Origin: an uncultured Anaerolineales bacterium | Lineage (GTDB): Bacteria > Chloroflexota > Anaerolineae > CG2-30-64-16 | Assembly: GCA_964474695.1 (NCBI GenBank) | Contig: CAYYTK010000017.1 | Coordinates: 25,572 to 89,571, forward strand | Direction of reading: 5' to 3' | DNA length: 64,000 nt | Part shown: positions 5,860-28,500 of the stretch, piece after piece | Position numbering within the stretch: position 1 is the stretch's first letter | How the letters are laid out: each line of letters starts with the position of its first letter | Position numbers and translations under genes: made by a program | The notes under the pieces: generated by a model | The model's input: only the letters and a program-made list of their open reading frames with translations | Databases searched by the model: none | What the model was told of the DNA's origin: nothing

Positions 5860-6183
5860 ATGAAGGCGAAGATACGTGAACTCTTATGTTCTATCTTCAA
5901 CCACGAGTGGGGCGAATACACAGATATAGGTCCATGTCATCGGGCACGTACCTGCGAACGCTGCGGCAAAACGGAGAATCGGGATGTTCACACGATGGAA
6001 TGGACGCCCGAGCGGGAGGGGTGCATCGGAGCATGCAGTAGGTGCGGAGCGAAAACACGACAGGAACACGACCTCTCCTGGGAATGGGACCCTGACTACG
6101 AACCATGCGACGATGGCGTGAATATGCAAGGCTGGCCTCGATTGTGGGAATGTAGCCGTTGCGGGTACACGTACCGCCAGTGA
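5860..6183 (+). CDS. small Cys-rich protein with three CxRCG units (zinc-ribbon-like)
   Basis: AGGAGG lies 4-5 nt upstream of the ATG. Three spaced units are present: CERCGKTE, CSRCGAKT, CSRCGYTY. The gene is AT-richer than its flanks and sits between the DUF1156 and DUF499 genes. Confidence 0.5.
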   Translation: MKAKIRELLCSIFNHEWGEYTDIGPCHRARTCERCGKTENRDVHTMEWTPEREGCIGACSRCGAKTRQEHDLSWEWDPDYEPCDDGVNMQGWPRLWECSRCGYTYRQ

Positions 6184-6433
6184 TGAACGGCCCGTTTCCT
6201 GGAAGTCGTTCGATGCCATGGGCTTCGTTGCGATAGCTGTCAAGCTGGGACAGAAACAAGAACATGCCGTCTGGGAGAACGAGTACCAGGCCGAAGACGT
6301 GTTCGCACCAGGATTTCTGCGAGTGAAGACCTAGTACATTCACACCGATTCACTCCAATCGCATTGGCGTTTAGCTGAGTTGCCGGGATAATCTGCGTGG
6401 ATCGTTGACCGGCAGACAGCAGGGACGAGGGCC

Positions 6434-11031: not shown

Positions 11032-14000
11032 ATGACAGACCCGACCACTCCCGATTACCGTTACTGGGCCTTCATCAGCTACAGCAGCAAAGACGCCGTG
11101 CACGCCAGATGGCTGCACCGCGCCATCGAGACTTATGGCATTCCTGCTAAGCTGGTCGAGCATGGCCATACGACGCCGCTGGGCGAACCGGCCCCCAAGC
11201 AGTTCAAGCCGGTGTTCCGCGACCGTGACGAGCTGCCCGCTTCCGCCGACCTGGGAGAAGCTATTCAAGACGCCCTTGCCGCCTCGCGCTGCTTGATCGT
11301 GATCTGTTCACCCCATGCTGCAATTTCGCCATGGGTTAATCGGGAGATCGAGACCTTCATCGAGATGGGCCGGGGCGACCGCATCTTCGCGTATATCGTG
11401 GACGGCGAGCCGAACAGCGACGACGAGAGGGAGTGTTTTCCGCCCGTGCTCAGGCGGCCGGTCGAACCTTTAGCCGCGGATGCCCGCCAGTCAAAAGATG
11501 GGCGAAACGATGCCAAACTCAAGCTACTGGCCGGCATGCTCGGCGTGGGATTTGACGCGCTCAAGCAACGCGATACTCAGCGCCGGGTGCGCCGCCTCCA
11601 GGTAGTCGTTGCGGCAGTCCTTCTCCTTGCACTGGTTCTGAGTGGCCTGGCCTGGTACGCCAACGCAGCCCGGCTGCGAGCAGAGGCGGCTGAAGCCAAC
11701 GCGGTCAACGAGTCGTATGTCCGAGCGACAGCCGAGGCCCAGGCCGTATCTGAATCCCATGTTCGCGCAACAGCAGAAGCTAATGCAGTCACTGAGGCCC
11801 ATGCGCGCGCCACAGCCCAGGCCGTGGCGGAAGATGAGCGCAATCGCGCCGAAGACGAGGCTCGAATTGCGCGAGTGCGTGAGCTGGCAGCAAAATCGCA
11901 GGCGGTCATCGAAAGCCAACCGCAGCACAGCCTGCTGCTTGGAATCGAGGCCGTTCAACTCGGCGCACAGGCCACACAAGCGTTGACTGGGGCTAAGAAC
12001 AATCTCTATCAAGCACTCTCTAGGATTGGCGGCCTTGGCTTGAGTGGCCACCGCAATTGGACTTGGCGGATGGCCTTCAGCTTGAACAGTCAGCGTTTGG
12101 TTACGGGCGGCCAGGATGGCACTGCACGCGTATGGGACATGACGGAGTCACCTATCCCACGTAATACCAGGGTTTACCAGACAAGGAATTCGATTACGTC
12201 GGTGGCCGTCAGCCCGGATGGTCGATGGCTGGCTGCCGCAGACGGAGACTTGGGACTCAATCCCTACTTGGTTGGTGATCTGGGTGGACTGGACACGCTT
12301 TTTCAGAGACGGGATCGTCAAGTGCAAGGCGCAGTCGACCGAAGCCGCGATACTGCCGTCTACTTGTGGGATCTCAATGCGCCTGACGACCGCCCTCCCA
12401 TCGTCCTTGGGGGCTACGACCACATAATCCACGCACTTGCTTTCAGCCCGGACAATCGCTGGTTGGCTACCGGCAACTACGACGCCACTGTGCGTCTGTG
12501 GAGTCTGGAAGCTCTTACGACCACGCAACCAATCATCCTGCATGGTCACGAATGGGATGTGTTGTCAATCGCCTTCAGCCCAGATGGGCGGCGGTTAGTT
12601 ACTGGCAGCGCTGACAACACAGCTCGCGTGTGGGACCTTTCCGTACCCGAGCCAGATAAGACCTCGATCGTGCTTGCTGGCCACACTGATCAGATCCAGG
12701 CCATGGCGATGAGTTCTGATGGGCACTGGCTAGTTACCGGCAGTGAAGACAAAACGGCCCGCTTATGGGACTTGACTGCACCTGACCCAGCTTCAACATC
12801 GGTGGTCATCGCACAACACAAGGCAACCGTTGCTGCAGTTGCTATCAGTCCAGATAACCGATGGGTGGCAACGGGAGGCTTTGCCGAGGACAATACCGTA
12901 CACTTGGTGGATCTCGCGGCCAGTCAATCGATAACGGATTCGCTGGTGTTTCGGGGGCACGAACGGAGCGTCATAGGTCTTGCATTCAGCCCCGACAGTC
13001 ATTGGCTCGTGTCAGCAAGCCTGGACAGCACTCTGCGTGCCTGGAATATCACATCCCCAGATCCTGTGGCTTCGGTTCGCGTCATTCGCGGGCAAAACAG
13101 CGCAAACCGCGCCATTGCTGTTAGCCCAGACGGCCGCTGGCTTGTAGCCGGCAGTGAAGATGGCAACGTGCGCCGATGGGCCATGTCAACAATTACCGGC
13201 ACATCTGTATTGGGCAATCCTGCTACCATCCCCCTGGCCTTGATGGGACACAAGGACAGGATCGTTGACCTGGCTGTCAGTCCGGATGGCCGTTGGTTGG
13301 CCACAGGCAGCAAGGAAGCCACGGCGCGGCTGTGGGATTTGCATTCGTTCTCGCCAGAATCTTTCTTTTCGACCGATGCTCTCCCCTCAATTGCGCTCGA
13401 AGGTCACCGGGACGAAGTATATAAACTCGCGTTCAGCGCTGACAGTCATTGGCTTGCGACCGCCAGCTTGGATGACACCGCGCGGCTGTGGGATCTGAAG
13501 GCAGCCAACCCGGCAGTCACCTCTCTACTTCTGGAGGGTCATGAGGGAGATATCAATGCTGTTGCGTTCAGCCCGGATGGCCATTGGCTTGTCACCGCCA
13601 GTGATGATCGAACTGCACGTCTATGGGATATCAGATCGACTAATCCAGCGGAGGACTATGTCGCTCTCACTGGTCATCAACTCCCAGTGCTCGTGGCAGA
13701 ATTCAGCAGCAACGGGCGCTGGCTGGCGACAGGTAGCATGGATGCTACAGCACGCCTCTGGGACATGTCCTTGGCAACTCCTGAAGCCAAGCCGATGGAA
13801 CTGACCGGTCACACCGATCATGTGATTGCGATGGCGTTTAGCCCAGACAATCACTGGTTGGCAACCGGCAGTGCGGACCACACCGCCCGTCTCTGGGACT
13901 TGACCAATCCAGAAAGCAGCACCCCGGTAGCGGTCCTGAGCGGCCACGTAGGCTATGTCACTACAGTCGCGTTCAGCCCTGATTGCCGTTGGCTGGTTAC

Positions 14001-15132
14001 CGGAGGAGCAGGATCCCTGGACCCTCTTCGCTTGTGGGACTTGACGTCCGAAGATCCTGCCGCTTCCCCCATTATCTTGCAGGGCCACAAGGCTTGGGTT
14101 TGGAATTCCGGGTTCACTCCTGATGGCCGTTGGCTGATCACCAGCAGTCTTGATGGGACAGTGCGCCTCTGGGACATGGCCACGGTTAACACCGATCCCT
14201 CATCGATTGTCCTTCTCGGCAAGCTGCCAGTGCTCGATCATGCCGTCAGTCCTGACGGACGTTGGCTGTTCACCGCAGACGAGCGTGGCGCAGCATTCAT
14301 CTGGCCTCTGCGGGTCGCAGATGTGGTGGAGCTGGCTTGTCTCACCGTTGGACGCAACATGAGCCTAACCGAATGGGAGCAGACCTTCTATGACAGCCCG
14401 TATCGGCTGACCTGCACTGACTTCCCGCTCCATCCCGCTCTTATTCAGCGGGCGCGATTGATTGCCGAGGGGGGCGATATGGCCAGAGCCATGTTGTACC
14501 TCAAGACCGCTTTGGAAATCGACCCCACTCTGGACCTGGAACCTGAGACAGAAGTGAAACGGTACACTGCGGAGGCCCTGCGGGAGGAAGGCGCACTCCT
14601 GGCGCAAACGGAGGGAGATGTGCAAGGGGCAACCGAGAAGTTTCGGCAGGCGCTTGAGCTGTACCCCGAGCTGGCTTTCGATGCGGAGGCAGAGGCTGGA
14701 CACTATGCTGCGCCGCATTTGCTGGATGAGGGGAGGCGTCTGGCAAGAGAGGGAGAAATGCTGGAAGCCTTGGCACTCTACGACAAGGCGCTGCAGCTAG
14801 ATCCTCACCTGATGATATCGGCCTCCTATTGGAATTATGTCTGCTGGTATGGGGGCCTATGGGACCAGGCGCAGGCAGTCATGGACGCCTGTGAGCGTGC
14901 CGTGGCCCTGAATCCGATCGACGGCAATATCCGAGATAGTCGTGGGCTTGTTAGGTCGCTGTTGGGACAGTATTCGGGAGCCATTGAGGACTTCCAGTAC
15001 TTCATCGCATGGCTGACAGAGAGAAACGGGAGCGCCAAAACAATCTCCCAGCGCGAAGCATGGGTTGCCACGTTGGAGGAAGGACGAAATCCTTTCGATG
15101 CGGCAACGCTCGAGGCGCTACGGGGTAAATAG
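11032..15132 (+). CDS. TIR - single TM - Ala/Glu-rich repeat - WD40 array - TPR protein
   Basis: TIR: YWAFISYSSKDAVHARWLHRAIETYGIP, CLIVICSPHAAISPWVNREIETF. Linker: PLAADARQSKDGRNDAKLKLLAGMLGVGFDALKQRD. TM: RRVRRLQVVVAAVLLLALVLSGLAWY. Many xxAFSPDxxWLxTGSxDxTARLWDL blades follow. C-terminus: ACLTVGRNMSLTEWEQTFYDSPYRLTC plus TPR-like helices. Confidence 0.9.
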   Translation: MTDPTTPDYRYWAFISYSSKDAVHARWLHRAIETYGIPAKLVEHGHTTPLGEPAPKQFKPVFRDRDELPASADLGEAIQDALAASRCLIVICSPHAAISPWVNREIETFIEMGRGDRIFAYIVDGEPNSDDERECFPPVLRRPVEPLAADARQSKDGRNDAKLKLLAGMLGVGFDALKQRDTQRRVRRLQVVVAAVLLLALVLSGLAWYANAARLRAEAAEANAVNESYVRATAEAQAVSESHVRATAEANAVTEAHARATAQAVAEDERNRAEDEARIARVRELAAKSQAVIESQPQHSLLLGIEAVQLGAQATQALTGAKNNLYQALSRIGGLGLSGHRNWTWRMAFSLNSQRLVTGGQDGTARVWDMTESPIPRNTRVYQTRNSITSVAVSPDGRWLAAADGDLGLNPYLVGDLGGLDTLFQRRDRQVQGAVDRSRDTAVYLWDLNAPDDRPPIVLGGYDHIIHALAFSPDNRWLATGNYDATVRLWSLEALTTTQPIILHGHEWDVLSIAFSPDGRRLVTGSADNTARVWDLSVPEPDKTSIVLAGHTDQIQAMAMSSDGHWLVTGSEDKTARLWDLTAPDPASTSVVIAQHKATVAAVAISPDNRWVATGGFAEDNTVHLVDLAASQSITDSLVFRGHERSVIGLAFSPDSHWLVSASLDSTLRAWNITSPDPVASVRVIRGQNSANRAIAVSPDGRWLVAGSEDGNVRRWAMSTITGTSVLGNPATIPLALMGHKDRIVDLAVSPDGRWLATGSKEATARLWDLHSFSPESFFSTDALPSIALEGHRDEVYKLAFSADSHWLATASLDDTARLWDLKAANPAVTSLLLEGHEGDINAVAFSPDGHWLVTASDDRTARLWDIRSTNPAEDYVALTGHQLPVLVAEFSSNGRWLATGSMDATARLWDMSLATPEAKPMELTGHTDHVIAMAFSPDNHWLATGSADHTARLWDLTNPESSTPVAVLSGHVGYVTTVAFSPDCRWLVTGGAGSLDPLRLWDLTSEDPAASPIILQGHKAWVWNSGFTPDGRWLITSSLDGTVRLWDMATVNTDPSSIVLLGKLPVLDHAVSPDGRWLFTADERGAAFIWPLRVADVVELACLTVGRNMSLTEWEQTFYDSPYRLTCTDFPLHPALIQRARLIAEGGDMARAMLYLKTALEIDPTLDLEPETEVKRYTAEALREEGALLAQTEGDVQGATEKFRQALELYPELAFDAEAEAGHYAAPHLLDEGRRLAREGEMLEALALYDKALQLDPHLMISASYWNYVCWYGGLWDQAQAVMDACERAVALNPIDGNIRDSRGLVRSLLGQYSGAIEDFQYFIAWLTERNGSAKTISQREAWVATLEEGRNPFDAATLEALRGK
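11689..11814 (+). repeat. 3 x 42-nt in-frame tandem repeat (AEANAVNESYVRAT / AEAQAVSESHVRAT / AEANAVTEAHARAT)
   Basis: Read from the translation and DNA. It lies immediately after the TM helix of the 11032 gene. Confidence 0.8.
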
Positions 15133-15253
15133 AGGTTGGCCGTACGCCGGGTTGCCTCGTCATTCACTTGTGCATCCCAGCCGACTACCTAAGCTACCGT
15201 GGGATAGAAGTCAGAAGTCGCCATTTGTCATCAAACCATAAGGTACCTACGCC

Positions 15254-18200
15254 ATGAGCGAGCAACCTGCCAGGGAGTACCGTTACTGGGCCTTCATCAG
15301 TTACAGCCACAAGGACGAGAAGCAGGCCAAGTGGCTGCACCGCGTCATCGAAAAATACGGTATTCCTATAAAGCAGCTTGAAAGAGGGCATCTCACCCCC
15401 GCGGGCGAGTCTGTGCCTAAGCGATTCTTCCCCGTCTTCCGCGACCGAGCCGAACTGCCGGCTTCCTCGGACTTAAGTGAGACAATCAGAGACGCCCTGG
15501 TGGCCTCGCGTTACCTGATCGTGATCTGCTCTCCGAATGCCGCACGATCCCAGTGGGTGAATCGGGAAGTGGAGACCTTCACCGAGTTGGGCCGCAGCGA
15601 CCGAATCTTCGCCTACATCGTGGATGGTGACACCGACTTGCGCAGATTCGTTAGGCGCTTTGTCCATTTGCTCACCCACATCTTCGCGCACACTACGAGC
15701 GTCGAAGTCGACAGCGGCGACGAGCAGGTGAACTTCCCGGACGCGCTGGAGGAGCAGGAGCCCCTGGCCGCCGATGCCCGCCGGCAAGGCGACGGCAGGA
15801 ATGATGCCAAGCTGAAGTTGCTGGCTGGTATGCTCGGCGTGGGGTTCGATGCGTTGAAGCAGCGTGACAAGCAGCAACAGGCCAAGCGATTCCGACTGAT
15901 AGCTGCCGTCGCGCTGGTACTCGTGATGGTCTTCTCTTTGCTGGCACTGTATGCCGAGTATCAGCGCCGCGAGAGCGAGGTCCAGGCCATGGGCCGCATG
16001 GCCATAGGATTCGCTGATCAGGCCAAGAAAGATGTCGCTGCATATCCCCAACGAAGCCTGCTCACTGCGATCGAGGCAGTCAGCTACTATTCCCAGAGGG
16101 CAGGCGAGACCGGGAGTTCGCCGGCTATGTCCTCCTTGCGTTACGTCCTTAACCGCACAGGGGGGCTAAGCCTGCCAGGCCACCAGGATGCGGTCGGGGT
16201 GACCGCGATCAGCCCGGACAGCCGATGGCTCCTGACCGGCGATGCCGGCGGGTTGGCCTTCATCTGGGATCTAAAAGCTGACGATCTGCGCGCAACGCGC
16301 ATGCAGTTGGCCGATCACCACGGACAGATAACCGCCGCGATGTTCACCCCTGACGGCAAACTGTTAGTCACCACCAGTGCAGATAGGCTCTACGGGTCCG
16401 GCCACGTCCGCATCTGGGTCATTGGGGACGGTGGGGTATCCCCTTCGCCAACCTTTGTATCAGCAAGAGGTGCTGGAAGCCTCGCTGCAGCGGTGAGTCC
16501 CGACAGCAAATGGCTGGTCACTTCAGACGGCGACTATCTCGTGAAGCTCTGGGATTTACGCAACTTTAGCTCCCCGCCGGTCACTTTACTGGCCAGGTCC
16601 AACGTAGTCAAGTCGATAGCATTCAGTCGCGACGGTCACTGGCTTGCAGCCGCCAGCCGCAATGGAAAGGCGTATTTATGGCGGGTCGGGACATTAGGAC
16701 CCTCTGAGACGCCTCTGGTCCTGCGTGGCCACGAGGACTGGGTGAACGCCGTGGCTTTCAGCGCGAACAGCGAATGGCTGTTTACTGGCAGTGGACAGTG
16801 GCAGGTGTGGCCTAACACCGTGACCGGAGCGGCTGCGAAGGATAACTCGCTCGTCGCCTGGAACCTCACAGCAGACAATCCGGCGGGAGCCGGAACGCTG
16901 ATGGGGAAGCTCGATTCGCCGGTGATACAGCTTGTCGTCAGCGATTCAGGCATGGGCCTGATCAGCGTGGGACTGGGCGCTGTCCGGGTCTGGCAACAAT
17001 CGGAACTCAATCACGCTGTGGTCCAGCAGCAGGGGGAGGTGCTGAAGGAATCGGCCGGCGTCGCCGCGTTTAGTCTTCACTCCGATTGGCTGGTCGTCGG
17101 CGACTCCCTCTGGGAGCCTCGTTCAGGATCATATGGTTACGGCAGGTATCTGAAGCTCGATGGCCACGAGGGAGCCATCCTGAATGTCGCCTTCAGCCCC
17201 GACGGGCGGTGGCTCGTCACAGCCGGAGCCGATGGTCTGCCTCGCCTGTGGAATCTCCACCGCATTGGGCTAGAAAATAAAGCGCAGGCTACTCCCCTCA
17301 GTTTTCAATCTCCTTTAGGTTGGTATCACCAGGCGGCCTTCAGCCCTGATGGCCGGTGGTTGGCATTGAACTTCGCAACTGACGGAACTCGCGAATGGGG
17401 CAAGATCAAGTATGGGCCCAAAAGCGCCTTCGCTGTGTACTTGTGGGGCGTAAATGACCTTGTGAACGGCTACAGCCCGAACTACCTCATAGGCCACAAC
17501 GCAGCTGTTGAATATCTCGCATTCAGCGGAAACGGACGATGGTTGACCACTTTGGACCGGAACAGAGAGATACTTTTGTGGGATATGCTGCAGGTACAAT
17601 CTGGTCCCTTCAAAGTACCCGGGATGGATCCTATAGTGTCGCTGGCGCTGAGTAGCGACGGTCGGTGGTTAGCCGCGCTAGGCGATCGAACAAAAACAGT
17701 GAGTCTCTGGAATCTGGACAGAGCGCCGGAAGCGATTCCTTCGCCCGTCGTACTTCGGGGCCATACGGAAAACGTCAACTCCATCGCCTTCAGCCCCGAC
17801 AGCCGGTGGCTCCTCACCGGAAGCGACGACAACACGGCGCGTCTTTGGGATCTGGCATCCGCAACCACGGTAGGGAATCCAATCGTGTTAGCCGGTCATA
17901 ACGGTGATGTAAGGCAGGTGTTAGTTACCCCCGATGGGAAGTGGGCGGTAACGAGCAGCTATGACCACACGGTCCGACGTTGGGATTTGCAGTCTATCAA
18001 CCCAGGCAGTGAATCTCACCCATACTCCGGATATCAGCAGTGGGATGTGCTATTGGGGGCAAGCTCAGATGGACACTGGCTGGTCACGGTGGACGGCAGC
18101 AATCCGGTCCTCTGGAACCTGTGGCGCAAGCAGGCGGACGCGATTGTCCTGACCGGACATACGGCTGCCGTGAATGCCATAGACATCAGCCCGGACAGCC

Positions 18201-19093
18201 GGTGGCTGATCTCGGGAGATCAGGTGGGAGAGGCGTTCATTTGGGATCTCCATAGTCCTCAGAGTAGCCCGGCCTTCTTTTCGAATTCCGGTCATGCGAT
18301 AGAGGTTGTGCGGGTTAGCGGTGATGGACGCTACGTGCTTGTGGTAGACACATCGGGTCTTGCTTCACTGATACTTCTGCGAACGGACGACTTGGTCACA
18401 CTTGCGTGTCAGGTCGTGGGACGAAACTTCACCGCCTCGGAGTGGAATGACTTCTTCCCTTTGCGTGCCTATCGTCCCACCTGCCCGGACTTGCCGCTCC
18501 CCCTGGGTCTGGTCGAGCCGATACTGGATGAGGCCAAACAACTTGCCGAGGCGGGTGACGTAGCGAAAGCCACCGCCAAGTTCCAGGCGGCAAAGACGAA
18601 AATCCCGACCTTGAATCTGGATCCCTCCGCCGAAGCAGAACGGCTTGCTATTGGAGCAAAGATAGAAGGCCTGGTCAAACAAGACCAGACCCAGGAAGCG
18701 CTCGACTTGTTTCTTGCGGAACGGGCTAGGGAGGGGGCGCCTGTGCTCTCGATGGACGCCATGGCGTCACTCTGCGTGTTCGGGAGCTATGCATCCCCGG
18801 TGGAAACAAAGGAAATCTGCAGCGAAGTCATCCGGAGGGATGACGTCCCGACGCATGGCGTCCGCCCCATGGGATTCGCGCTTTTCGGAAGGGGTATCAC
18901 ACGCATCGCCGCACACGACTATTCAGGCGCGGTTGAGGATTTCACCTCCATTACAAAAGGGCTGAATGGATTGGAGGGTTACGACGAGTTCCGGTCCGAG
19001 CTTGGCGTGGACCTGGATGCATGGATTGCCGATCTGAATGCCGGGCGGATTCCGCCGGATGCGCCTTCTCGCCGATCCTACAGCCGGCGCTGA
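15254..19093 (+). CDS. TIR - single TM - WD40/beta-propeller protein (paralog of the preceding gene)
   Basis: TIR: YWAFISYSHKDEKQAKWLHRVIEKYGIP, YLIVICSPNAARSQWVNREVETF. It has the same linker, PLAADARRQGDGRNDAKLKLLAGMLGVGFDALKQRD. TM: KRFRLIAAVALVLVMVFSLLALY. The WD40-like blades are degenerate. C-terminus: ACQVVGRNFTASEWNDFFPLRAYRPTC. Confidence 0.9.
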   Translation: MSEQPAREYRYWAFISYSHKDEKQAKWLHRVIEKYGIPIKQLERGHLTPAGESVPKRFFPVFRDRAELPASSDLSETIRDALVASRYLIVICSPNAARSQWVNREVETFTELGRSDRIFAYIVDGDTDLRRFVRRFVHLLTHIFAHTTSVEVDSGDEQVNFPDALEEQEPLAADARRQGDGRNDAKLKLLAGMLGVGFDALKQRDKQQQAKRFRLIAAVALVLVMVFSLLALYAEYQRRESEVQAMGRMAIGFADQAKKDVAAYPQRSLLTAIEAVSYYSQRAGETGSSPAMSSLRYVLNRTGGLSLPGHQDAVGVTAISPDSRWLLTGDAGGLAFIWDLKADDLRATRMQLADHHGQITAAMFTPDGKLLVTTSADRLYGSGHVRIWVIGDGGVSPSPTFVSARGAGSLAAAVSPDSKWLVTSDGDYLVKLWDLRNFSSPPVTLLARSNVVKSIAFSRDGHWLAAASRNGKAYLWRVGTLGPSETPLVLRGHEDWVNAVAFSANSEWLFTGSGQWQVWPNTVTGAAAKDNSLVAWNLTADNPAGAGTLMGKLDSPVIQLVVSDSGMGLISVGLGAVRVWQQSELNHAVVQQQGEVLKESAGVAAFSLHSDWLVVGDSLWEPRSGSYGYGRYLKLDGHEGAILNVAFSPDGRWLVTAGADGLPRLWNLHRIGLENKAQATPLSFQSPLGWYHQAAFSPDGRWLALNFATDGTREWGKIKYGPKSAFAVYLWGVNDLVNGYSPNYLIGHNAAVEYLAFSGNGRWLTTLDRNREILLWDMLQVQSGPFKVPGMDPIVSLALSSDGRWLAALGDRTKTVSLWNLDRAPEAIPSPVVLRGHTENVNSIAFSPDSRWLLTGSDDNTARLWDLASATTVGNPIVLAGHNGDVRQVLVTPDGKWAVTSSYDHTVRRWDLQSINPGSESHPYSGYQQWDVLLGASSDGHWLVTVDGSNPVLWNLWRKQADAIVLTGHTAAVNAIDISPDSRWLISGDQVGEAFIWDLHSPQSSPAFFSNSGHAIEVVRVSGDGRYVLVVDTSGLASLILLRTDDLVTLACQVVGRNFTASEWNDFFPLRAYRPTCPDLPLPLGLVEPILDEAKQLAEAGDVAKATAKFQAAKTKIPTLNLDPSAEAERLAIGAKIEGLVKQDQTQEALDLFLAERAREGAPVLSMDAMASLCVFGSYASPVETKEICSEVIRRDDVPTHGVRPMGFALFGRGITRIAAHDYSGAVEDFTSITKGLNGLEGYDEFRSELGVDLDAWIADLNAGRIPPDAPSRRSYSRR

Positions 19094-19243: not shown

Positions 19244-21613
19244 ATGGTTGAGAGAAAGCGTTCTTTCATCAGCATGGCCAGGCTATCCCACCTCTGGCGC
19301 CGCCATGGCTGGCTGATTATCGGCCTGCTGTGGATCGTCGCACTGGCGTTGGGCTGCGTTGGCTTTGCGCTGAACGCGGCGGTCGAGGGGCGGTCGCCGC
19401 GCTTCTTCGACGTGGCCTACCGCACCCTCCAGCTTATCCCGATGAACTCCGGCGACGTGGATAGCGCGGCCTGGCCACTCGATGTCGCGCGCTTCCTGAT
19501 CCCCTTCCTCGCGGCCTGGACTGCGGTCCGCGCGCTGCTGGGGCTGTTCAGCGACCGCTGGCAGCAGTTCCTCCTGCGCACCTGGCGCGGCCACGTGATC
19601 ATCTGCGGGCTTAGCCGCAAGGGCTGGCTGCTGGCACAGGGCTTTGTGGAGCGGGGTGACCGCGTGGTCATGATCGAGGCCGATGAATCCCACGACCTGA
19701 TCGGCCCCTGCCGCGAGCGCGGGATAGTTGTGCTTCTGGGCGACGCTACGGATTCGGACCTGCTGCGGCGGGCCGGCGTGCTCCGCGCTGGGCACCTGGT
19801 GGCAGTCACCGATGACGATGGCGTCAACGCGGAGATCGCGGTGCGCTCCCAAGGGGTGCTGCGCAACGCTGCCCAGGGGAGCAGGAGCCAACGAGGATCC
19901 TTGACCTGCACCGTACACCTGGTGGACCCGCAGCTTTACGAGCTGGCGCGCACGCGCGAGCTGGCGCTGGAAGAGGACGTGCCGCTGCGCCTGGAGCTGT
20001 TCAACGTGTTCGAGCGCGGGGCCCGCCTGCTGTGGGATGACTTCGGGCCGGTGCGCGGGGGAAACGGCGCACCGCAAAGGGGAGTCGAGACAACTGACGT
20101 GTGCTCGGCGCATGTGTTGGTGGTTGGGCTGGGCCGCCTGGGCGAGTGCCTGGCCGTTCACGCGGCGCGCGACTGGCACACGCGGCTGCACGATTCACCC
20201 TGCGCCGCGGCCGGCCGGCTGCGCATCACCGTGGTGGACCTGGAGGCAGACTGGAAGTGCCGGGCGCTGAGCCTGCGCTACCCGCAACTGGCCGGCGTGT
20301 GCGACCTGATCCCGTTGGCTATGGACGTGCGCGGGCCGGGCTTCTATGAGGAGACCTTCCTGACCGGGATAACCGATCACCCGCCGGCCAGCGCGGTCTT
20401 CGTTTGTTTCGACGACGACTCATTGGGGCTGCGCACCGGGCTGGCGGTCCATCAGCGCCTGCTGCACACGGCCGCGGGGCCGACGCCGGTGATCGTGCGC
20501 ATGGCGGAGGCCGGTGGGCTGGCGCGGCTGTTGGAGCGGGCCGTCGAGGGCCATGGGGCGACGACCTTTGCCAACCTGCACGCCTTCCCCCTGCTCGACC
20601 GCACCTGCACGCCCGAAGCAATCCTGGGCGGCACGCACGAGGTGTTGGCGCGCGGCCTGCACGGGGTCTACCGCCGGCAACAGGAGGCGCTCGGCCACAC
20701 CGCCGCCACCAATCCGTCGCTGATCGGTTGGGAGGAGCTGCCCGAGGCGCTGCGCGAATCGAATCGCGCCGAAGCTGACGGCATCTTTCGGCACCTGGCC
20801 TCCTTGGGATACACGCTCATTCCGTTGGCCGATTGGAACGCTGCCTTCTTTCGCTTCCCCGAGGCAGAGCTCGAGCGCCTGGCGCAGGTGGAACACGAAC
20901 GCTGGGTCAGCGACTTGCGGCGCCGCGGCTTCAGGCCCACCGATGGGCCGAAGGACGTGGCTGCCAGACTTCATCCGGCGCTGCGGCCCTGGGCTGATCT
21001 GCCTGACGCGGAGCGCATCAAGACGCGCGACAATGTACGCGAATTGCCGGCGACATTGGCCCGCGCCGGCTTCCAGGTCGTCCGGCTGGCTTCGACCGGC
21101 CAAAGCATAACCCCCAGCCCCTCGGCACAAGGAGAAGAGCCAGTGAGCATGCAATCCAATCGGCGCGAGGTCCTGGGCCGCGCCATCCACGAACGCTATC
21201 GGCAGAACCAGCGGGGCATCAAATCGCCGGACGACCCAGCCATGCAACCCTGGGAGACATTGGCCGAGCATCTGCGCGAGTCCAACCGGCAGCAGGGCGA
21301 CGACATCGAAGCCACCCTGCAGCACATCAGCTGCGGGGTGCGGGCTGCCGTAGGCCCGGCGCCGGTCCCTTTTGTCTTCACGAATGAAGAAATCGAGGCC
21401 ATGGCCGCCTTAGCGCATGAGCACTGGATGGCGGAGCGCCGCCGGGCGGGCTGGAGATCCGGGCCGCAGCGCGACGCGGAACGCAAGATCACCCCGTACT
21501 TGATACCCTACGCTGAGTTGACAGAGGATGTCAAGGAGTGGGATCGCCAGGCTGTGCGAGCGATACCGGAAGTGTTGGCGGCCGCCGGGTTGGAAGTGCA
21601 TCGCCTGCCGTAG
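19244..21613 (+). CDS. channel-like 2-TM protein with RCK/TrkA-N NAD-binding domains and two C-terminal RyR-type units
   Basis: AAGGAGG lies 8 nt upstream of the ATG. TM1 is WLIIGLLWIVALALGCVGFAL. A pore-loop-like segment, FFDVAYRTLQLIPMNSGDV, precedes TM2 LDVARFLIPFLAAWTAVRALLGLF. RCK: GHVIICGLSRKGWLLA..VVMIE..GDATDSDLLRRAG..AVTDDDGVNAEIA. A second Rossmann-like segment is HVLVVGLGRLGECLA. RyR-like: LAQVEHERWVSDLRRRGFRP..LHPALRPWADLPDAERIKTRDNVRELPATLARAGFQVV and AALAHEHWMAERRRAGWRSGPQRDAERKITPYLIPYAELTEDVKEWDRQAVRAIPEVLAAAGLEV. Confidence 0.8.
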   Translation: MVERKRSFISMARLSHLWRRHGWLIIGLLWIVALALGCVGFALNAAVEGRSPRFFDVAYRTLQLIPMNSGDVDSAAWPLDVARFLIPFLAAWTAVRALLGLFSDRWQQFLLRTWRGHVIICGLSRKGWLLAQGFVERGDRVVMIEADESHDLIGPCRERGIVVLLGDATDSDLLRRAGVLRAGHLVAVTDDDGVNAEIAVRSQGVLRNAAQGSRSQRGSLTCTVHLVDPQLYELARTRELALEEDVPLRLELFNVFERGARLLWDDFGPVRGGNGAPQRGVETTDVCSAHVLVVGLGRLGECLAVHAARDWHTRLHDSPCAAAGRLRITVVDLEADWKCRALSLRYPQLAGVCDLIPLAMDVRGPGFYEETFLTGITDHPPASAVFVCFDDDSLGLRTGLAVHQRLLHTAAGPTPVIVRMAEAGGLARLLERAVEGHGATTFANLHAFPLLDRTCTPEAILGGTHEVLARGLHGVYRRQQEALGHTAATNPSLIGWEELPEALRESNRAEADGIFRHLASLGYTLIPLADWNAAFFRFPEAELERLAQVEHERWVSDLRRRGFRPTDGPKDVAARLHPALRPWADLPDAERIKTRDNVRELPATLARAGFQVVRLASTGQSITPSPSAQGEEPVSMQSNRREVLGRAIHERYRQNQRGIKSPDDPAMQPWETLAEHLRESNRQQGDDIEATLQHISCGVRAAVGPAPVPFVFTNEEIEAMAALAHEHWMAERRRAGWRSGPQRDAERKITPYLIPYAELTEDVKEWDRQAVRAIPEVLAAAGLEVHRLP

Positions 21614-21673: not shown

Positions 21674-24241
21674 ATGACCGACGGAATCTCGCAAAGTGAT
21701 ATTGATTGGGCCTGCCGACAGATCGCCTGCTACAGTGAGCTCTATCCGAGATATCAGACCTATGCAACGGTCCTGAAGAACGTGCTCGATCAGGCAGTGC
21801 GCGGCCTGGCCCCACTCGCCACCGTAGAGACCCGACCGAAAAACATAGCCAGCTTCGCCGAAAAGATCATGCGCAAGAAAGACAAATACCGGGACCCGGT
21901 CAACCAGTTGACCGACCTGTGCGGCGCTCGCGTCATTACCCACACCTACGCCGAAGTCGGATTGATCTGTGAGTTCATCGAGCAGCACTTCATCGTGGAT
22001 GCTGCAAACAGCGTCAAGATCCACCAGCGGCTGAAGCCCAACGAGTTCGGGTATCGCTCGGTGCATTACGTCGTGCAGATCCCCCGTGGTGTTTTCACAA
22101 AAGAGCGTGAGGCTGTCGAGATCCCGGAGGATGTATACCCAGGACCGCAGGGGGCTCCCCCCATGAAAGCCGAGATCCAGGTGCGGACCCTGCTGGAGCA
22201 CGCTTGGGCGGTGTTCAGCCACGAAAAAGCATACAAGGGCGCATTCGACATGCCAGCAGTGTGGGACCGCGAACTGAACGGCATTGCGGCCTTGCTGGAG
22301 GAGGCTGACCAGGCCTTCTCGCGCATCCAGGCTGGCTTGCGCGCCTACGCGGCCAGCTATGGCGCTTCCATGAAACCTGAGCAGGTTCGTAACGAAATCG
22401 CCCTGCTCCGCGTCGTGTGGGGATGCAGCAACTCAGATCTCGATGTGGCTTACCGCATTGCCAAGCTGGCTATGACCATCGAAGATTGGGACCAGGCGAT
22501 TGAAATGCTTCGACCGCACAAGGAGGCCCTCAGCCAACCAATGCTGCGAGACCTGGGCATTTCGCTCACAAAGAAGTATGCGCAGGAGCCTCAGAGTATG
22601 GACTTCATAGAAGGCCGCGAACTCCTGGCCCGCGCGTGCGAGCTCAATCCCGCCGATGCCGATGCCTGGGCTTCCCGCGCCGGCGCCCACCGGGATGACC
22701 CGGCCACCCGACGCTTCTATTACCAACGCGCCTTTGTAGCTGACCCAACCGATCCATACGCTGTTAGCCGGCTTCTGGTCAGTGAGGTCTCGCGAGCGTG
22801 GGATCCTGCGGCGACCCAATCATCAGCCGCTGCGCCCAACCAGCCCATCGAGAGACAATACCTGCCTGCTGCACAGCTAATGGAACCCGCGATCAGAGCA
22901 TCCATCCAGCGCTGCCGAAACCAGATCGCGGTAGGGACGAACATGCCATGGGCTTACTACAGCCTTGGCATGTTCCATCTGATGCTGCACGAGCCCTACG
23001 AAAGCCTGATTGACTACGCCAAAGCGACCCAACTCAGCACGGCCCCCTGGATGATCAAGACCTCGCTGGATACCCTCCATGAGTTGGCACCTGTCCGCAG
23101 CTTTCTGCCCGGATATGATTGGCTAGTGCGATGGCTCATCCTCGGATGGGCCACACTGTTCCCCGACAAAGCCCCCGTTGACCAAATGGCTGCGCTGCGC
23201 AGGTCGAGCGACGAGCCCATCTCAGCGCCAGTGCTTGTCATTGCAGGCGGCACGGATCCCAGTGTCGAAGAGAAGATGCAGACCTACCGAAAGTTCCTGC
23301 TGGACGGGCTTAAGGACTATGCGGGCACCATCATCTCGGGCGGCACGCTTGCAGGGATCGCGCGACTCGTCGGCGATGTACAAGAGGCCGCAGGCGATAG
23401 AGTCAGAACCACCGGCTACATACCTGCAGAAGCAGAGGATCTTCCACTCGACTCCCGGTATCGCGAGCTCCGAACGACAGAAGGACGCGATTTCAGTGCG
23501 CTCAAGGTCGCTCAGTACTGGATCGACCTTGTGCTATCGGGCGTCCGCCCCCAGCAAGTCAAGGTCATCGGGATCAACGGCGGGCGTATCTCCGCAGTAG
23601 AATATCGCTTGGCCCTGGCCCTAGGCGCACAGGTCATCGTCGTTGAGGGCAGTGGCCGGGCCGTCGATGACTTGCTCAAGGATCGCAACTGGGCCGACGA
23701 ACCCAATCTACTCCCAATTCCGGCCGACGCAATAGTCCTCGGGGGTCTTGTCGGTGCCAAGCGGCCGATCATTGATAAGAATCAGCGCGAAGACCTGGGA
23801 CGCGCCATCCACGCGGCATACTGCCAGACACAGGCGATTGAGCGGGCCAGGGCAGACCCGTCCACGGTTGGCTGGGATAGCCTGGCGGAGAACCTCCGGG
23901 AGTCGAATCGCCAGCAGGCCGATCACATTGAAAAGAAGGTGGCGCAGATCGGCTGCTCCATTTGCGCTGCCGGAGAGACAGAAAACCCCGTCATGGAGTT
24001 CAGCAAAGAAGAGGTCGAGGCCATGGCCGAGATGGAGCACGGCCGGTGGATGGCCGAGCGTCTGCAAGCTGGATGGCGGCGCGGCACGCCCAAGGATGTG
24101 GCGAGGAAAACTAGCCCGTACCTTATGCCGTGGTGGGAACTTGACGAGGACGTGAAGGAGTGGGATCGTGTCACCGTGCGCCAGATTCCGCAGTTACTGG
24201 CGGAAGTCGGACTGCAGGTGCGGCGAGATCGTCCTACGTAG
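21674..24241 (+). CDS. RelA/SpoT-family nucleotide pyrophosphokinase - TPR - SLOG (LSDAT/TRPM-type) - RyR-unit fusion protein
   Basis: GGAGGTG lies upstream of the ATG. Synthetase motifs: RPKNIASFAEKIMRK, DLCGARVITH, EFGYRSVHYVVQ, AEIQVRTLLEHAWAVFSHE. Helical TPR-like middle region. SLOG: VLVIAGGTDPS, IISGGTLAGIARLVGD, VIGINGGRIS, QVIVVEGSGRAVDDL. C-terminal RyR unit: AEMEHGRWMAERLQAGWRRGTPKDVARKTSPYLMPWWELDEDVKEWDRVTVRQIPQLLAEVGLQV. Confidence 0.85.
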   Translation: MTDGISQSDIDWACRQIACYSELYPRYQTYATVLKNVLDQAVRGLAPLATVETRPKNIASFAEKIMRKKDKYRDPVNQLTDLCGARVITHTYAEVGLICEFIEQHFIVDAANSVKIHQRLKPNEFGYRSVHYVVQIPRGVFTKEREAVEIPEDVYPGPQGAPPMKAEIQVRTLLEHAWAVFSHEKAYKGAFDMPAVWDRELNGIAALLEEADQAFSRIQAGLRAYAASYGASMKPEQVRNEIALLRVVWGCSNSDLDVAYRIAKLAMTIEDWDQAIEMLRPHKEALSQPMLRDLGISLTKKYAQEPQSMDFIEGRELLARACELNPADADAWASRAGAHRDDPATRRFYYQRAFVADPTDPYAVSRLLVSEVSRAWDPAATQSSAAAPNQPIERQYLPAAQLMEPAIRASIQRCRNQIAVGTNMPWAYYSLGMFHLMLHEPYESLIDYAKATQLSTAPWMIKTSLDTLHELAPVRSFLPGYDWLVRWLILGWATLFPDKAPVDQMAALRRSSDEPISAPVLVIAGGTDPSVEEKMQTYRKFLLDGLKDYAGTIISGGTLAGIARLVGDVQEAAGDRVRTTGYIPAEAEDLPLDSRYRELRTTEGRDFSALKVAQYWIDLVLSGVRPQQVKVIGINGGRISAVEYRLALALGAQVIVVEGSGRAVDDLLKDRNWADEPNLLPIPADAIVLGGLVGAKRPIIDKNQREDLGRAIHAAYCQTQAIERARADPSTVGWDSLAENLRESNRQQADHIEKKVAQIGCSICAAGETENPVMEFSKEEVEAMAEMEHGRWMAERLQAGWRRGTPKDVARKTSPYLMPWWELDEDVKEWDRVTVRQIPQLLAEVGLQVRRDRPT

Positions 24242-25501: not shown

Positions 25502-28500
25502 GTGACGATGGATGGACAAATGACGAGTATATTCCTCTCCTATGCACGCGATGATGACGAGCCATTCGTCCGGCGGCTGTACGACGACCTGACCGAGGCC
25601 GGATTCACCGTCTGGTTCGACCGCGTCTCCATGCCGAGCCGTGCGCTCACCTTCCTGCAGGAAATCCGCGACGCCATCGCCGCTTCCAACCGCCTCCTGC
25701 TCGTGGTGGGACCGAAAGCCGTCGCCTCGGACTACGTGGCGGCTGAGTGGCGCTGCGCGCTGGAGCTGTGCCTCGCGGTCACGCCGGTGCTACGGCTGGG
25801 CGACTACAACCTGGTGCCCCCTGAGCTGTCGGTGCATCACTGCCCCGATGCCCGGCCAGAGCGCCCCTACGCCGACGCGCTAGCTGAGCTGCTGCGCGTC
25901 CTGGCCGAGCCGGTGCCGCCCCTGGCGGCGCTACACGGCGTGCCATCGTTGCCCGCGCACTTTCTGCCCCGGCCGACCGACCTGGCTTTCCTGGACGAGG
26001 CCGTGCTGGCGGACGTGCGCGGGCCGACGGTCATCACCTCGGCCAGGCAGACCACGGCGCTGCAAGGGATGGGCGGCGTGGGCAAGTCGGTATTGGCCGC
26101 GGCCTTTGCGCGGAGTTGCGGCGCGCGCCGCGCGTTCGGCGACGGCATCGTCTGGCTGACCCTGGGCCAGCAGCCCGATCTGCTGCGGGTGGCGTTGGCG
26201 CTGGCTGCGGCGCTGGGGGACGACTTGGCCGAGTACACCGACCTGCAACGCGCCCGGAACCGCTTGCCGAAGCTGCTGGACGACAAGAAGTGCCTGCTGG
26301 TGCTCGACGACGCCTGGGACGTGGCCCACGCCGAGCTCTTCGCCAACAGCCTTGGCCCGCGCTGCCGGCTGCTGGTGACCACGCGCGACGGCGGGCTGGC
26401 GGCCGCGCTGGGCGCACAGGAGCGTCGGCTGGACGTGCTGGAGCTGGATGCGGCCTTGAGCCTATTGGCAGACTGGTCGGGCAAGGCCAGCGAAACCCTG
26501 CCGTCCGAGGCGTGCGAGGTGGCCGCCGAGTGCGGCTACCTGCCCTTTGCGCTGGCGTTGTGCGGCGCAATGGCCCGCGACGGCGCGCCTTGGGCCGACC
26601 TGCTGGACGCGCTACGTGAGGCCGATCTGGCGTTCTTGCAGGCGCAGTTCCCCAACTACCCCTACCCCGACGTGCTGCGGGCACTGAAGGTCAGTGTGGA
26701 CGCTCTGGCCGCCAGCGACCCGAACTGGGCGAGGCACTACCAGGAGCTGGCCGTTTTCCCACCTGACGAGGCAGTGCCCGAAGCTGCGATCGTCCAGTTG
26801 TGGGTGCACACCAACGGCCTCAACGAACGAACCGCGCGCCAACTGCTGACGACCCTGGGCCGCAAGTCGCTGGTGCGGCTGGAGGGCCAGGCGCCGCACC
26901 GCCGCGTGGCCCTGCACGATCTGCAACACGACTACCTGCGCGCCGCGCTGCGCGACCTGACCGGCCTGCACGCTGAGCTGCTCGCCGCGTACCGGGAGAA
27001 GTGTCCCGAAGGCTGGCACGCCGGTCCGAACGACGGCTACTTCTTCGAACGGCTGACGTGGCACCTGGCCCTCGCCGGTCGGGCTGCTGAGCTGCGCGAT
27101 CTCCTGCTCGACTACCGCTGGATTCGAGCGAAGCTGGGGGCCTCCGGGCCGGCCGCGCTGATCGCGGACTACGATGTCGCGTTCGACCTTGCCGCGCCCC
27201 GTGGGGCCGGCGATGAGACGGTGCGGCCGGTGCAGGGCGCGATCCGGCTGTCGGCGCATGTGCTGGCGCGGGATGTGGAGCAGCTGCCATCGCAGATCAC
27301 CGGCCGGCTGCTGGCGCGGCGGGAGGAGGAGATAGAAAAACTGCTGCAGCAAGTGCGCGACGAGACAAAGACGCCGTGGCTGCGACCCCTGGCGCCGACC
27401 CTGGACGCCCCTGGCGGCGCGCTGGTGCGCACGCTGACCGGCCATACCAGTGGCGTCCTGGCTGTGGCGCTCACGCCAGACGGACGGCAGGCAATCTCTG
27501 CATCGGGGGACAAGACGCTTAAGGTATGGGACTTGACAAGCGGGAAGGAGTTGCGCACCCTGGCCGGTCATACCAATGACGTCACGGGCGTAGCGCTTAC
27601 GCCAGACGGCCGACTGGCCATCTCCACATCTGAGGACACGCTCAAAGTGTGGGACGTGGCAAGCAGCCAGGAATTACGCACTATAACATGCCATGACGGC
27701 TGGATCAAAGCCGTGGCATTGACACCGGACGGTAGGTTGGCGGTCTCCGCCTCGTGGGACAGCACGCTCAAAGTGTGGGACGTGGCAAGCGGCCAGGAGT
27801 TACGCACCCTAGCCGGCCATGTCGGGACAGTCGAGGCCGTGGCGTTGACACCAGACGGCCGGTTGGCGGTCTCCGCATCGGAAGATGAAACGCTTGAGAT
27901 TTGGGACGTGGCAAGCGGCCAGAGGTTGCGCACCCTGGCAGGCCACACCGGGTGGGTCTGGGGCGTGGCGATCACAGCGGATGGGCGGCTGGCCGTCTCG
28001 GCATCATGGGATAACACGCTTAAGGTGTGGGACATAGCGACCGGGAAGGAACTGCACACTCTGGTCGGTCATTCAAAGGGTGTCAAGGCCGTGACGCTCT
28101 CTCCCGATGGCCGGTTGGCCATCTCGGGCTCAGACGATAGGACGCTCAAGGTGTGGGACGTGGCCAGCGGGCAGGAGCTATGCACGCTCGCAGGCCATGC
28201 TGGTCCGATCACCGCCGTGGCAGTGACGCCGGACGGTAGGTTGGCCGTCTCTGCATCGTGGGACCAGACGCTCAGGGTGTGGGACGTGGCCAGCGGGCAG
28301 GGGCTGCGTGCCCTGACCGACCATGCCGGGGCGGTCACCACAGTGGCGCTCACATTAGATGAACGACTAGCCGTCTCGGCTTCAAGCGATATGACGCTGA
28401 AGGTCTGGGATGTGGCCAGTGGGTCAGAGTTGAAGACCCTAGAAGGCCATGCCGGCCAAATCACGGCCGTGGCCCTCACGCCAGACGGCCGGCTGGCCGT

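Follow-up and report, generated by a model that had tools for sequence, protein, structure and literature searches.

The stretch of DNA analysed here (the window) comprises 64,000 nucleotides (nt) from an uncultured Anaerolineales bacterium of the Chloroflexota (GenBank assembly GCA_964474695.1, contig CAYYTK010000017.1, positions 25,572 to 89,571 of the forward strand). It carries four genes, termed A to D, whose products combine an N-terminal TIR domain with C-terminal WD40 repeats and contain a single predicted transmembrane (TM) helix between the two. An earlier note on this DNA had located four open reading frames (ORFs), all of which exist where it placed them.

TIR domains, WD40 repeats and a hydrophobic helix in A to D

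Genes A to D, like all of their features described below, lie on the plus strand. Based on the ORF list, Pfam and an AlphaFold2 (AF2) model, gene A (11032..15132) encodes a protein of 1366 aa, which consists of a TIR domain, a juxtamembrane helix, the TM helix, a predicted coiled-coil stalk, a helical cap, WD40 propellers, a two-Cys motif and a TPR-like tail. Gene B (15254..19093, 1279 aa) shows the same order with a short linker after the TM helix: TIR, TM, linker, WD40, two-Cys motif and TPR-like tail. Gene C (47551..51828, 1425 aa; like B assigned from the ORF list and Pfam) has an nSTAND1 NTPase between TIR and TM, followed by a stalk, WD40 repeats and a terminal two-Cys motif. The largest protein is encoded by gene D (53162..58816, 1884 aa) and contains TIR, nSTAND1, TM, a long stalk, a highly repetitive WD40 array and a TPR-like tail with a Cys pair; the first two-Cys motif is absent from D.

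The TIR domains of A, B and C matched the Pfam family TIR_2 (PF13676, cut-off 28) with 50.6, 49.5 and 48.7 bits, respectively. Pfam assigns D to TIR_2 as well, and its TIR region resembles that of C: both proteins are paralogues with 49% identity in an alignment that spans TIR, nSTAND1 and TM and in which the hydrophobic helices align. A and B are paralogues as well (58% identity over the TIR-TM part) and additionally matched ThsB_TIR (PF08937, cut-off 21.2) with 40.4 and 36.9 bits. In A, the TIR domain covers aa 14-126 (11071..11409) and is modelled with a predicted confidence score (pLDDT) >90. Its residue E105, which is part of the sequence SPWVNRE (motif SxWVNxE / SxW..xE), is invariant in 60 aligned homologues of the A/B family; judged from this alignment, A and B have preserved the Glu that an enzymatic TIR (NADase or signal-producing) would be expected to carry. 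C and D matched nSTAND1 (PF20703, cut-off 27.1) with 306.8 and 330 bits and both contain the Walker A sequence GPSGSGKSS, whereas Pfam detected no NTPase domain in A and B. WD40 (PF00400, cut-off 27) scored 446 bits in A (14 stretches), 239 in B, 155 in C and 688 in D. No leucine-rich repeat (LRR) family is among the Pfam matches listed for A to D, the C-terminal part consisting of WD40 and TPR. Likewise, none of the four proteins has an N-terminal signal peptide or hydrophobic segment, and the TIR domain (residues 10-126) precedes the helix.

The helix was identified by the mean Kyte-Doolittle hydrophobicity of 19 residues (KD19), together with a Hessa-type insertion scale. Exactly one segment with a KD19 of 2.64-2.84 is present in each of A to D, the next peak being <=1.63, and the Hessa sums of these segments range from -1.9 to -3.6 kcal/mol, with the next best segment at >=+6.3. 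In A, the predicted helix LQVVVAAVLLLALVLSGLAWYA comprises aa 189-210 (11596..11661; KD19 2.64, Hessa sum -1.9, hydrophobic moment 0.15, pLDDT 95-98), is conserved in homologues and carries a Trp-Tyr pair at its C-terminal end, the predicted outer one. The counterparts are aa 214-234 in B (RLIAAVALVLVMVFSLLALYA, 15893..15955; KD19 2.84, Hessa sum -3.6), aa 566-587 in C (49246..49311; KD19 2.71, Hessa sum -2.8) and aa 576-597 in D (54887..54952; KD19 2.69, Hessa sum -2.9). All four have a mean Eisenberg hydrophobicity of 0.73-0.81, a hydrophobic moment of 0.11-0.17 and an uncharged span of 23-28 aa with no central Pro turn. Because of this uniform hydrophobicity and the length of the uncharged span, the helix is not amphipathic and too short for a hairpin, which differs from the amphipathic or re-entrant helix that the earlier note had named as the alternative.

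Directly in front of the helix, A contains an Arg-rich juxtamembrane segment ('GRNDAKLKLLAGMLGVGFDALKQRDTQRRVRR', aa 157-188, 11500..11595). Alignment columns 156-184 are nearly invariant, and the consensus in the TIR-TM family reads FDALKQRD..RRIRRLQ. The AF2 model of residues 1-460 of A, calculated with a 60-sequence alignment, predicts a confident TIR domain and a single unbroken helix from residue 174 to 293, which runs through the hydrophobic segment and whose pLDDT stays at 95-98 as far as residue ~230; it is followed by two cap helices and the initial propeller blades. Altogether, the KD19 and Hessa values bear out the earlier description of exactly one helix of ~21 aa between TIR (with or without NTPase) and WD40. 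The Arg/Lys-rich N-flanks read as quoted there in all four proteins. Of the Ala/Glu-rich motifs reported for all four C-flanks, those of A, C and D were confirmed, whereas B has no Ala/Glu repeat after its helix: the sequence 'SESHVRATAEA' assigned to B is really a second copy within A.

The helix is widely retained among relatives. A search with residues 1-370 of A yielded 620 relatives, in which TIR, juxtamembrane segment and helix occur as one module on TPR, WD40 or PDZ C-termini. Using a threshold of KD19>=1.9, the helix was found in 104/120 metagenomic homologues of this TIR-TM set, and 86 of the 120 metagenomic homologues retrieved with residues 140-700 of C have one helix directly after the NTPase. 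In addition, we scanned one genome per species (GTDB species representatives) and obtained at least 582 TIR-TM loci, of which 80 were kept for counts. The loci span Chloroflexia, Thermoleophilia, Verrucomicrobia, Planctomycetes, Acidobacteria and the Alpha-, Gamma- and Deltaproteobacteria; the best match comes from the Chloroflexia (70% identity), which points to a probably Chloroflexia-like source of the window, and the cultured genera Dyella, Rhodanobacter, Mesorhizobium and Rhizomicrobium are among the carriers. Tractable homologues include the TIR-TM-TPR gene of Dyella japonica DSM 16301 (L033) and the locus of Mesorhizobium escarrei (L060). Exactly one segment with KD19>=1.6 is present in 75/80 kept loci, located at residues 183-222, and the remaining five have a weaker Ala/Gly/Thr-rich segment in the same position, so that the position of the helix is shared by 80/80. 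Retention of the helix in homologues, which the earlier note had proposed as a check, is therefore observed. TPR (37/74) and WD40 (22/74) are the domains found behind the helix in the 74 genome loci that were scanned for them. Using the C-terminal module of A as query, 16,281 representative proteins were matched at E<=1e-3, partly generic TPR/WD40 proteins, and 713 at E<=1e-30. Of the listed matches of at least 900 aa, 81/93 contain a single strong helix in front of the module, and in three others this helix is weaker.

Orientation of the helix and the part behind it

To describe the charge of the flanks, we counted Lys and Arg (K+R) over 15 residues on either side of the helix. The N-flank contained more K+R than the C-flank in 99/103 sequences of the TIR-TM family (mean 6.17 vs 3.20, p=4e-18), in 65/83 of the nSTAND1-TM family (4.77 vs 2.54, p=1e-12) and in 75/80 of the set retrieved with the C-terminal module (4.88 vs 2.19); these sets share ancestry and are thus non-independent, so that the p-values overstate the significance. 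The charge bias of the flanks is hence kept in homologues, as the earlier note had suggested to check.

The kind of domain that follows the NTPase in nSTAND1 relatives points in the same direction. A helix after the NTPase is present if the C-terminus is an FGE-type lectin (39/44), WD40 (15/16), TPR (9/9) or Sortilin/BNR domain (3/3), in total in 66/72 proteins, but in 0/9 relatives with a GAF/PAS-HisKA-HATPase or receiver C-terminus (Fisher p=1.9e-8, uncorrected for relatedness). HisKA-HATPase and receiver domains need ATP and cytoplasmic partners. A similar case is the metagenomic TIR relative P0061, which may represent a further architecture of the TIR-TM family. Here, the TIR domain is followed by a TM helix, a 31-aa loop, a second TM helix and an AAA_16 ATPase; the two helices would thus return the ATPase to the cytoplasm. 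On the N-terminal side of the helix, the wider class carries nSTAND1, protein kinase, CHAT protease or TIR modules, each with a cytoplasmic chemistry. There are also relatives which consist of a signal anchor only, with a short N-terminus, helix, stalk and propellers; their helix starts at residue 6 in P0386, 52 in P0354 and 58 in P0267.

The window itself provides an internal control for the helix. Protein E (25502..29581, plus strand, 1359 aa) has a TIR-like N-terminus and an NB-ARC-like P-loop region, both recognised by eye, together with near-identical WD40 repeats, but no hydrophobic helix. Since E combines WD40 repeats with the lack of a helix, the helix of A to D is not a by-product of WD40 composition. 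The Cys content of the propeller region of E is 1.1%, and its C-terminus contains a zinc-ribbon-like CxxC...CxxC arrangement.

Cys residues that are sparse and paired classically characterise the exported proteins of bacteria that form disulfides. The WD40 regions behind a TM helix (n=80) have a median Cys density of 0.45%, and 78% of them contain an even number of Cys (mode 4; p=8e-7). In contrast, the TM-less NB-ARC/NACHT-WD40 relatives of E (last 650 aa, n=112) have a median density of 0.92% and an even count in 42% (Mann-Whitney p=4e-13 for the densities). The even-number bias was absent in the TIR-TM/TPR set retrieved with residues 1-370 of A (38% even among non-zero counts), a set with many incomplete sequences, on which the Cys comparison does not rely.

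Because charge bias, the relation between helix and C-terminal domain, the N-side modules, the Cys statistics and the signal-anchor-only relatives agree, we consider it probable that A to D adopt an N-in/C-out orientation, with TIR and NTPase in the cytoplasm and the propellers outside of it. The earlier note had derived this arrangement from the positive-inside rule, and it gains computational support from the charges, the helix distribution, the Cys pattern, the signal-anchor relatives and the continuous AF2 helix; none of the computational tests contradicted it.

The part behind the helix, predicted to be extracytoplasmic, starts with an Ala/Glu/Arg/Thr-rich helix of ~70-120 aa in A, C and D, whereas B contains a short linker only. 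The stalk of A (aa 211-293, 11662..11910) is rich in Ala, Glu and Arg, forms part of the AF2 helix 174-293 and is composed of 14-aa (two-heptad) repeats (ESYVRATAEAQAV / SESHVRATAEANAV / TEAHARATAQAVA). Tandem Repeats Finder detected no repeat at the DNA level in the A stalk, the 14-aa periodicity being visible in the protein only. The stalk of D contains a tandem duplication of 105 bp (55034..55249, 2.1 copies), which corresponds to 35 aa or five heptads. In both proteins the repeat units, 14 aa in A and 35 aa in D, are multiples of seven residues, and we infer that the stalks of A, C and D form a coiled coil of variable length, as heptad-multiple repeats would look.

A helical cap precedes the propellers in all four proteins. 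In A it comprises aa 297-331 (11920..12024; 'P..SLLLGIEA'), is modelled as two helices (297-311 and 315-331) and recurs in homologues; the counterparts are 'PQRSLLTAIEA' in B, 'DLALLLGVES' in C and 'DLALILARDA' in D. We found no Pfam family and no solved relative for the cap. The WD40 propeller array of A extends over ~aa 340-1090 (12049..14301) and accounts for the 446 bits of PF00400. In the array of D (55600-58000), the repeats are nearly identical, with 'VNSVAFSPDGERIVSGGEDGTVRLWDA.SG.QL' occurring many times, as is typical of rapidly diversifying repeat sensors.

Behind the propellers follows the two-Cys motif W..L...AC..GRN.(S/T)..EW..(F/Y)....YR.TC, which is located at 14305..14439 in A (C1103, C1128), at 18374..18508 in B (C1052, C1077) and at 51703..51825 in C (C1396, C1421). 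According to the earlier note, three of the four proteins end with this motif. It is indeed present in A, B and C, but marks the C-terminal end only in C, as A and B continue with a TPR-like domain (200-240 aa). The TPR-like module of A (14440..15129) has TPR matches in Pfam and contains a second conserved Cys pair, C1271 and C1287, which corresponds to C1174/C1189 in B and C1782/C1798 in D. In homologues, the motif W..L...AC..AGRNLT..EW..Y....PYR.TCP contains both Cys in 124 sequences, neither in four and a single one in one. The two-Cys/TPR-like tail is probably extracytoplasmic, and its Cys pairs are probably disulfide-bonded.

Database comparisons added little to the assignment of these parts. 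Pfam returned no family for the two-Cys motif or the stalk, only TPR and chance-level matches. A PDB sequence search gave no matches for the TIR-TM-stalk part and, for the C-terminal module, generic TPR/WD40 chains only, including PkwA, none of which covered the two-Cys motif. In NCBIfam, the stalks of A and D matched the TolA model weakly and below threshold; this match and the sub-threshold matches to TolB and PQQ-propeller models were used as analogies of design and not as evidence of membership.

Neighbouring genes and a candidate pathway for A and B

Two candidate downstream effectors, F and G, come directly after B and are likewise encoded on the plus strand, F 150 nt behind B and G 60 nt behind F. 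At the N-terminus of the gene F product (19244..21613), two TM segments enclose a P-loop-like stretch (by eye); a TrkA_N/RCK domain and an RyR domain follow. The sequence 'FFDVAYRTLQLIPMNSGDV' between the two hydrophobic segments of the N-terminus (19244-19600) resembles, by eye, a degenerate pore loop of K+ channels (T.GYGD) in front of RCK, and F may be a ligand-gated ion channel. A homologue of F (39% identity over 607 aa) adjoins a TIR-TM gene in a Thermoleophilia genome. Gene G (21674..24241) combines RelA_SpoT (59.4 bits), SLOG (LSDAT_prok, 40.1 bits, cut-off 25.4) and RyR (52.8 bits). The RyR domain recurs among the neighbours of TIR-TM genes in the window and at related loci.

Upstream of A, a stand-alone ThsB-like TIR protein of 235 aa is encoded at 9991-10698, which is the best PADLOC match to ThsB in the window (1.8e-15). 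Its C-terminal tail is highly charged, rich in Glu, Gln and Trp, and contains repeats of the type 'QE.AKWDAW'.

A closer look at the 80 related loci revealed two recurring types of neighbours. In 24/80, the TIR-TM gene is accompanied by a gene whose product (~600 aa) carries a SLOG-like domain at its N-terminus and has four TM segments, and in 17/80 by a (RyR)-TPR-S-adenylate/guanylate cyclase. Altogether, 40 of the 80 loci have a SLOG-SLATT or TPR-S-cyclase neighbour, in many cases translationally coupled to the TIR gene, the distance between stop and start being -37 to +5 nt. Loci with such neighbours include L004, L011, L023, L026, L036, L042, L045, L055 and L072.

SLOG is the domain by which ThsA of Thoeris systems reads the isomer of cyclic ADP-ribose (cADPR) that is produced by the TIR protein. 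Owing to the ThsB_TIR match, the invariant Glu, the SLOG domain of G and the SLOG-SLATT/TPR-S neighbours at related loci, the most economical model suggests that the A/B locus encodes a Thoeris-like pathway with a transmembrane ThsB-like receptor. Thoeris types with SLATT or TPR-containing effectors which respond to canonical cADPR have been validated (preprint 10.64898/2025.12.03.692087).

The surroundings of C and D contain further genes of interest. The stop codon of an ORF at 44719-47550 abuts the GTG start of C (47550/47551); the encoded protein has at least four hydrophobic segments and, by eye, a P-loop 'GQRRTGKTS'. Between C and D (51853-53157) lies a gene for a caspase-like protein (PADLOC caspase match, 6e-17), whose C-terminal half appears TIR-like by eye, and the gene downstream of D (58938-60242) encodes a protein with two TM segments and a P-loop of NB-ARC-like type, 'GMGGIGKTS' (by eye). 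Together with these three neighbours, C and D may form one or more membrane-associated conflict systems. Other defence-type genes are located within 1556-9915, among them DUF1156 (2754-5681) and DUF499 (7078-9915), and an Eco57I/TaqI_C-type restriction-modification fusion is found at 38065-42432. A phosphofructokinase gene (24350-25462) lies amid the defence-type genes. The whole window looks like a defence island.

Proposed mechanism, rival readings and known systems

Taken together, we assign a probability of roughly 70% to the reading that A to D are single-pass type II membrane receptors with the following outside-in route. The stalks of A, C and D would project the WD40 propellers off the membrane, where a putative multivalent ligand, for example a phage particle, a phage protein, a piece of envelope or the surface of a neighbouring cell, would bind the propellers and cluster or re-register the stalks. 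Clustering would bring the cytoplasmic TIR domains of A and B together and, in C and D, license NTP-dependent oligomerisation of nSTAND1. The TIR domains would then consume NAD+ and/or make an ADP-ribose-derived signal, which, in the case of A and B, would probably be read by G (RelA/SpoT-SLOG-RyR) and F (two TM, RCK, RyR); in related genomes, the SLOG-SLATT or RyR-TPR-S-cyclase neighbours would take the role of the reader. Genuine outside-in activation of TIR signalling, taken by itself, is possible, though with the odds somewhat against it.

Several observations weigh against such receptors or against the proposed route. The Glu of the TIR domain is found at W+6 in C and W+5 in D, compared with the canonical W+4, which makes the catalytic status and the output of these two proteins less clear. 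Three apparently complete relatives, P0265, P0340 and P0357, carry the same cap and C-terminal module without a helix, and the C-terminal module can thus also live in the cytoplasm. Cys accounts for ~2% of the C-terminal part in P0265 and P0340 and for ~1% in P0357, and P0265 lacks the first motif Cys; the three proteins may derive from the membrane form and have become cytosolic. On the C-terminal side of the helix, one Cys is left unpaired in each of A and D, and the shared ancestry of the homologue sets mentioned above reduces the weight of the p-values. On the side of the pathway, DUF4231/SLATT models matched all 13 tested members of the SLOG-like neighbour family (13/13), but always below the Pfam cut-offs, and the SLOG matches of this family are sub-threshold, too. 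Moreover, PADLOC yields only weak TIR-type matches, F is not matched at all, and among the genes around C and D the caspase is the only one matched, so that A to D are not filed under any named defence system.

The existence of signal-anchor-only relatives without a cytoplasmic enzyme argues for an ectodomain with a role of its own. This would fit a protein with the predicted topology in which the helix is a mere tether: the ectodomain would then be structural or adhesive, directed towards the wall, the sheath or neighbouring cells of a filamentous bacterium, or it would position the protein at phage entry sites, with a cytoplasmic cue as activator. The Chloroflexia-like affinity of the window speaks for this reading, too. 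However, the modules exchanged in front of the same helix and ectodomain, namely TIR, nSTAND1, protein kinase and CHAT protease, are all signalling or effector modules, and the C-terminal repeats of STAND proteins are established as the sensor. In addition, both the helix and the juxtamembrane segment show high conservation and are predicted to form one continuous helix, which fits mechanical coupling, and we therefore regard a mere tether as unlikely.

Far less probable is a segment that does not span the membrane but serves as a monotopic or re-entrant anchor or as a buried oligomerisation helix, with both halves of the protein in the cytoplasm as in classical STAND-WD40 proteins. The TM-less relatives with the same C-terminal module and the fact that WD40 repeats of the PF00400 type are mostly known from cytosolic proteins speak for it. 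It is hard to reconcile with an uncharged span of 23-28 aa without a Pro turn, with its hydrophobicity (0.73-0.81) and moment (0.11-0.17), with the lack of a helix wherever the C-terminal domain needs ATP and the two helices in P0061, with Cys depletion and even-number bias only behind the helix, and with a charge bias that is consistent in three homologue sets. An inverted topology, with TIR and NTPase outside and WD40 inside, we consider next to impossible, and we found nothing that speaks for it: K+R are enriched on the N-side of the helix, a signal peptide is absent from the N-terminus, the Cys pattern points the opposite way, and nSTAND1 and NADase-type TIR domains need NTP and NAD+, both of which are cytoplasmic. 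The re-entrant or amphipathic helix and the inverted arrangement were both rejected on these grounds.

With A to D read as type II receptors, the most obvious comparison is with animal Toll-like receptors (TLRs), whose logic the earlier note had ascribed to these proteins. In both cases, a single membrane pass separates an external repeat sensor from an internal TIR domain, and ligand-induced approximation of the TIR domains is the natural model. The functional analogy therefore stands, but the polarity is reversed: A to D are predicted type II proteins with an N-terminal TIR domain and no signal peptide, whereas TLRs are type I. Moreover, the predicted ectodomain of A to D is made of WD40 propellers and, in part, a TPR-like tail instead of LRRs, the TIR domain of A and B keeps the Glu of enzymatic TIRs, whereas that of TLRs is a scaffold, and C and D carry a STAND NTPase between TIR and membrane. 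We regard the resemblance to TLRs as convergent, one of logic only and not of homology.

The effector of Thoeris type I is a SIR2-SLOG protein. A and B resemble Thoeris in their ThsB_TIR matches above the cut-off, in the tandem arrangement of TIR paralogues with a SLOG-containing gene downstream and in the related loci, which pair a TIR gene with SLOG-SLATT or TPR-S proteins. In contrast, known ThsB proteins are small, soluble and sense in the cytoplasm, whereas the TIR domain of A and B is fused via the TM helix to >1000 aa of predicted external repeats. Furthermore, RelA/SpoT-SLOG-RyR and two-TM-RCK-RyR proteins are not among the described Thoeris effectors, and the PADLOC matches are weak. 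Thoeris types VII (SLATT) and VIII (TPR-containing ThsI) have been described (preprint 10.64898/2025.12.03.692087).

C and D share the order effector-NTPase-sensor with STAND and NLR-like systems, such as the nSTAND1 systems of Kaur et al. (2021, PMC8195603), bNACHT and Avs. They differ in the predicted TM helix between NTPase and sensor, which is present in C, D and 66/72 comparable relatives; with the TM helix between nSTAND1 and WD40, the sensor could not fold back on the NTPase as in cytosolic STANDs. That WD40-STAND proteins are normally assumed to be cytosolic, as stated in the earlier note, is overstated, since membrane-associated NLR-like proteins have already been mentioned: TM-bearing bNACHT proteins as possibly sensing intramembrane or periplasmic signals (Kibby preprint 10.1101/2022.07.19.500537), a periplasmic CLec sensor as a prediction for one NACHT protein targeted by a diversity-generating retroelement (PMC10907252), and NB-WD40/TPR proteins 'with or without transmembrane signatures' (PMC7145615). 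In the literature on nSTAND1, STAND-WD40 proteins with a TM helix, bacterial WD40 and TPR-S/SLOG/RyR, we found no explicit analysis of the TIR-TM-WD40/TPR topology. Membrane topology is not a subject of the systematic survey of WD40 proteins in prokaryotes (PMC5587647), and a receptor topology of this type is not discussed in the eLife papers that define nSTAND1 or in the 2025 TIR survey (10.64898/2025.12.03.692087).

Two further likenesses concern the design of the proteins. PknD of Mycobacterium tuberculosis (kinase, TM, NHL propeller) likewise has a cytoplasmic N-terminal catalytic domain, one TM helix and an external propeller, and receptor Ser/Thr kinases with an external propeller are what we take to be the closest bacterial precedent in architecture. 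Relatives with the order kinase-TM-WD40 and the same C-terminal module as A were also found (P0255, P0408, P0486). Unlike PknD, the output of A to D is a TIR domain or TIR-STAND and not a kinase, and their ectodomain, with several WD40 propellers, exceeds that of PknD by far. With TolA, A and D share a long single helix after an N-terminal TM anchor, and the weak matches of their stalks mentioned above belong here; these matches are sub-threshold and driven by composition, TolA domain III and a Tol-Pal context are missing, and the likeness is thus one of design only.

To our knowledge, the TIR and STAND defence systems characterised in bacteria so far, namely Thoeris, Avs, bNACHT and the TIR effectors of CBASS and Pycsar, all sense their trigger in the cytoplasm. 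Tentatively, and with less confidence than in outside-in activation as such, A to D could belong to a widespread class of outside-in innate-immune receptors of prokaryotes (at least 582 loci). The WD40/TPR ectodomains of this class would recognise phage particles, envelope lesions or foreign cells, with nucleic acid entering only later or not at all, and an NAD+-derived messenger would address SLOG, TPR-S, SLATT or RyR effectors, as an independent functional counterpart of TLRs. If true, NAD+-based immune or suicide signalling could be started from the cell surface, for example by phage adsorption, envelope damage or cell contact, and the design of animal TLRs with an external repeat sensor, one helix and an internal TIR domain would have been invented independently. 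The family is large and present in culturable Proteobacteria, and the SLOG-SLATT and RyR-TPR-S-cyclase neighbours offer a read-out. Even if the ectodomain were only a tether or adhesin, the results would correct database names such as "WD40 repeat protein", "TPR repeat protein" and "TIR domain-containing protein", which are silent on topology. In comparison with known systems, the design of A to D varies two known themes, Thoeris-like TIR signalling and STAND sensors, and does not amount to a new category; it is widespread and rarely discussed.

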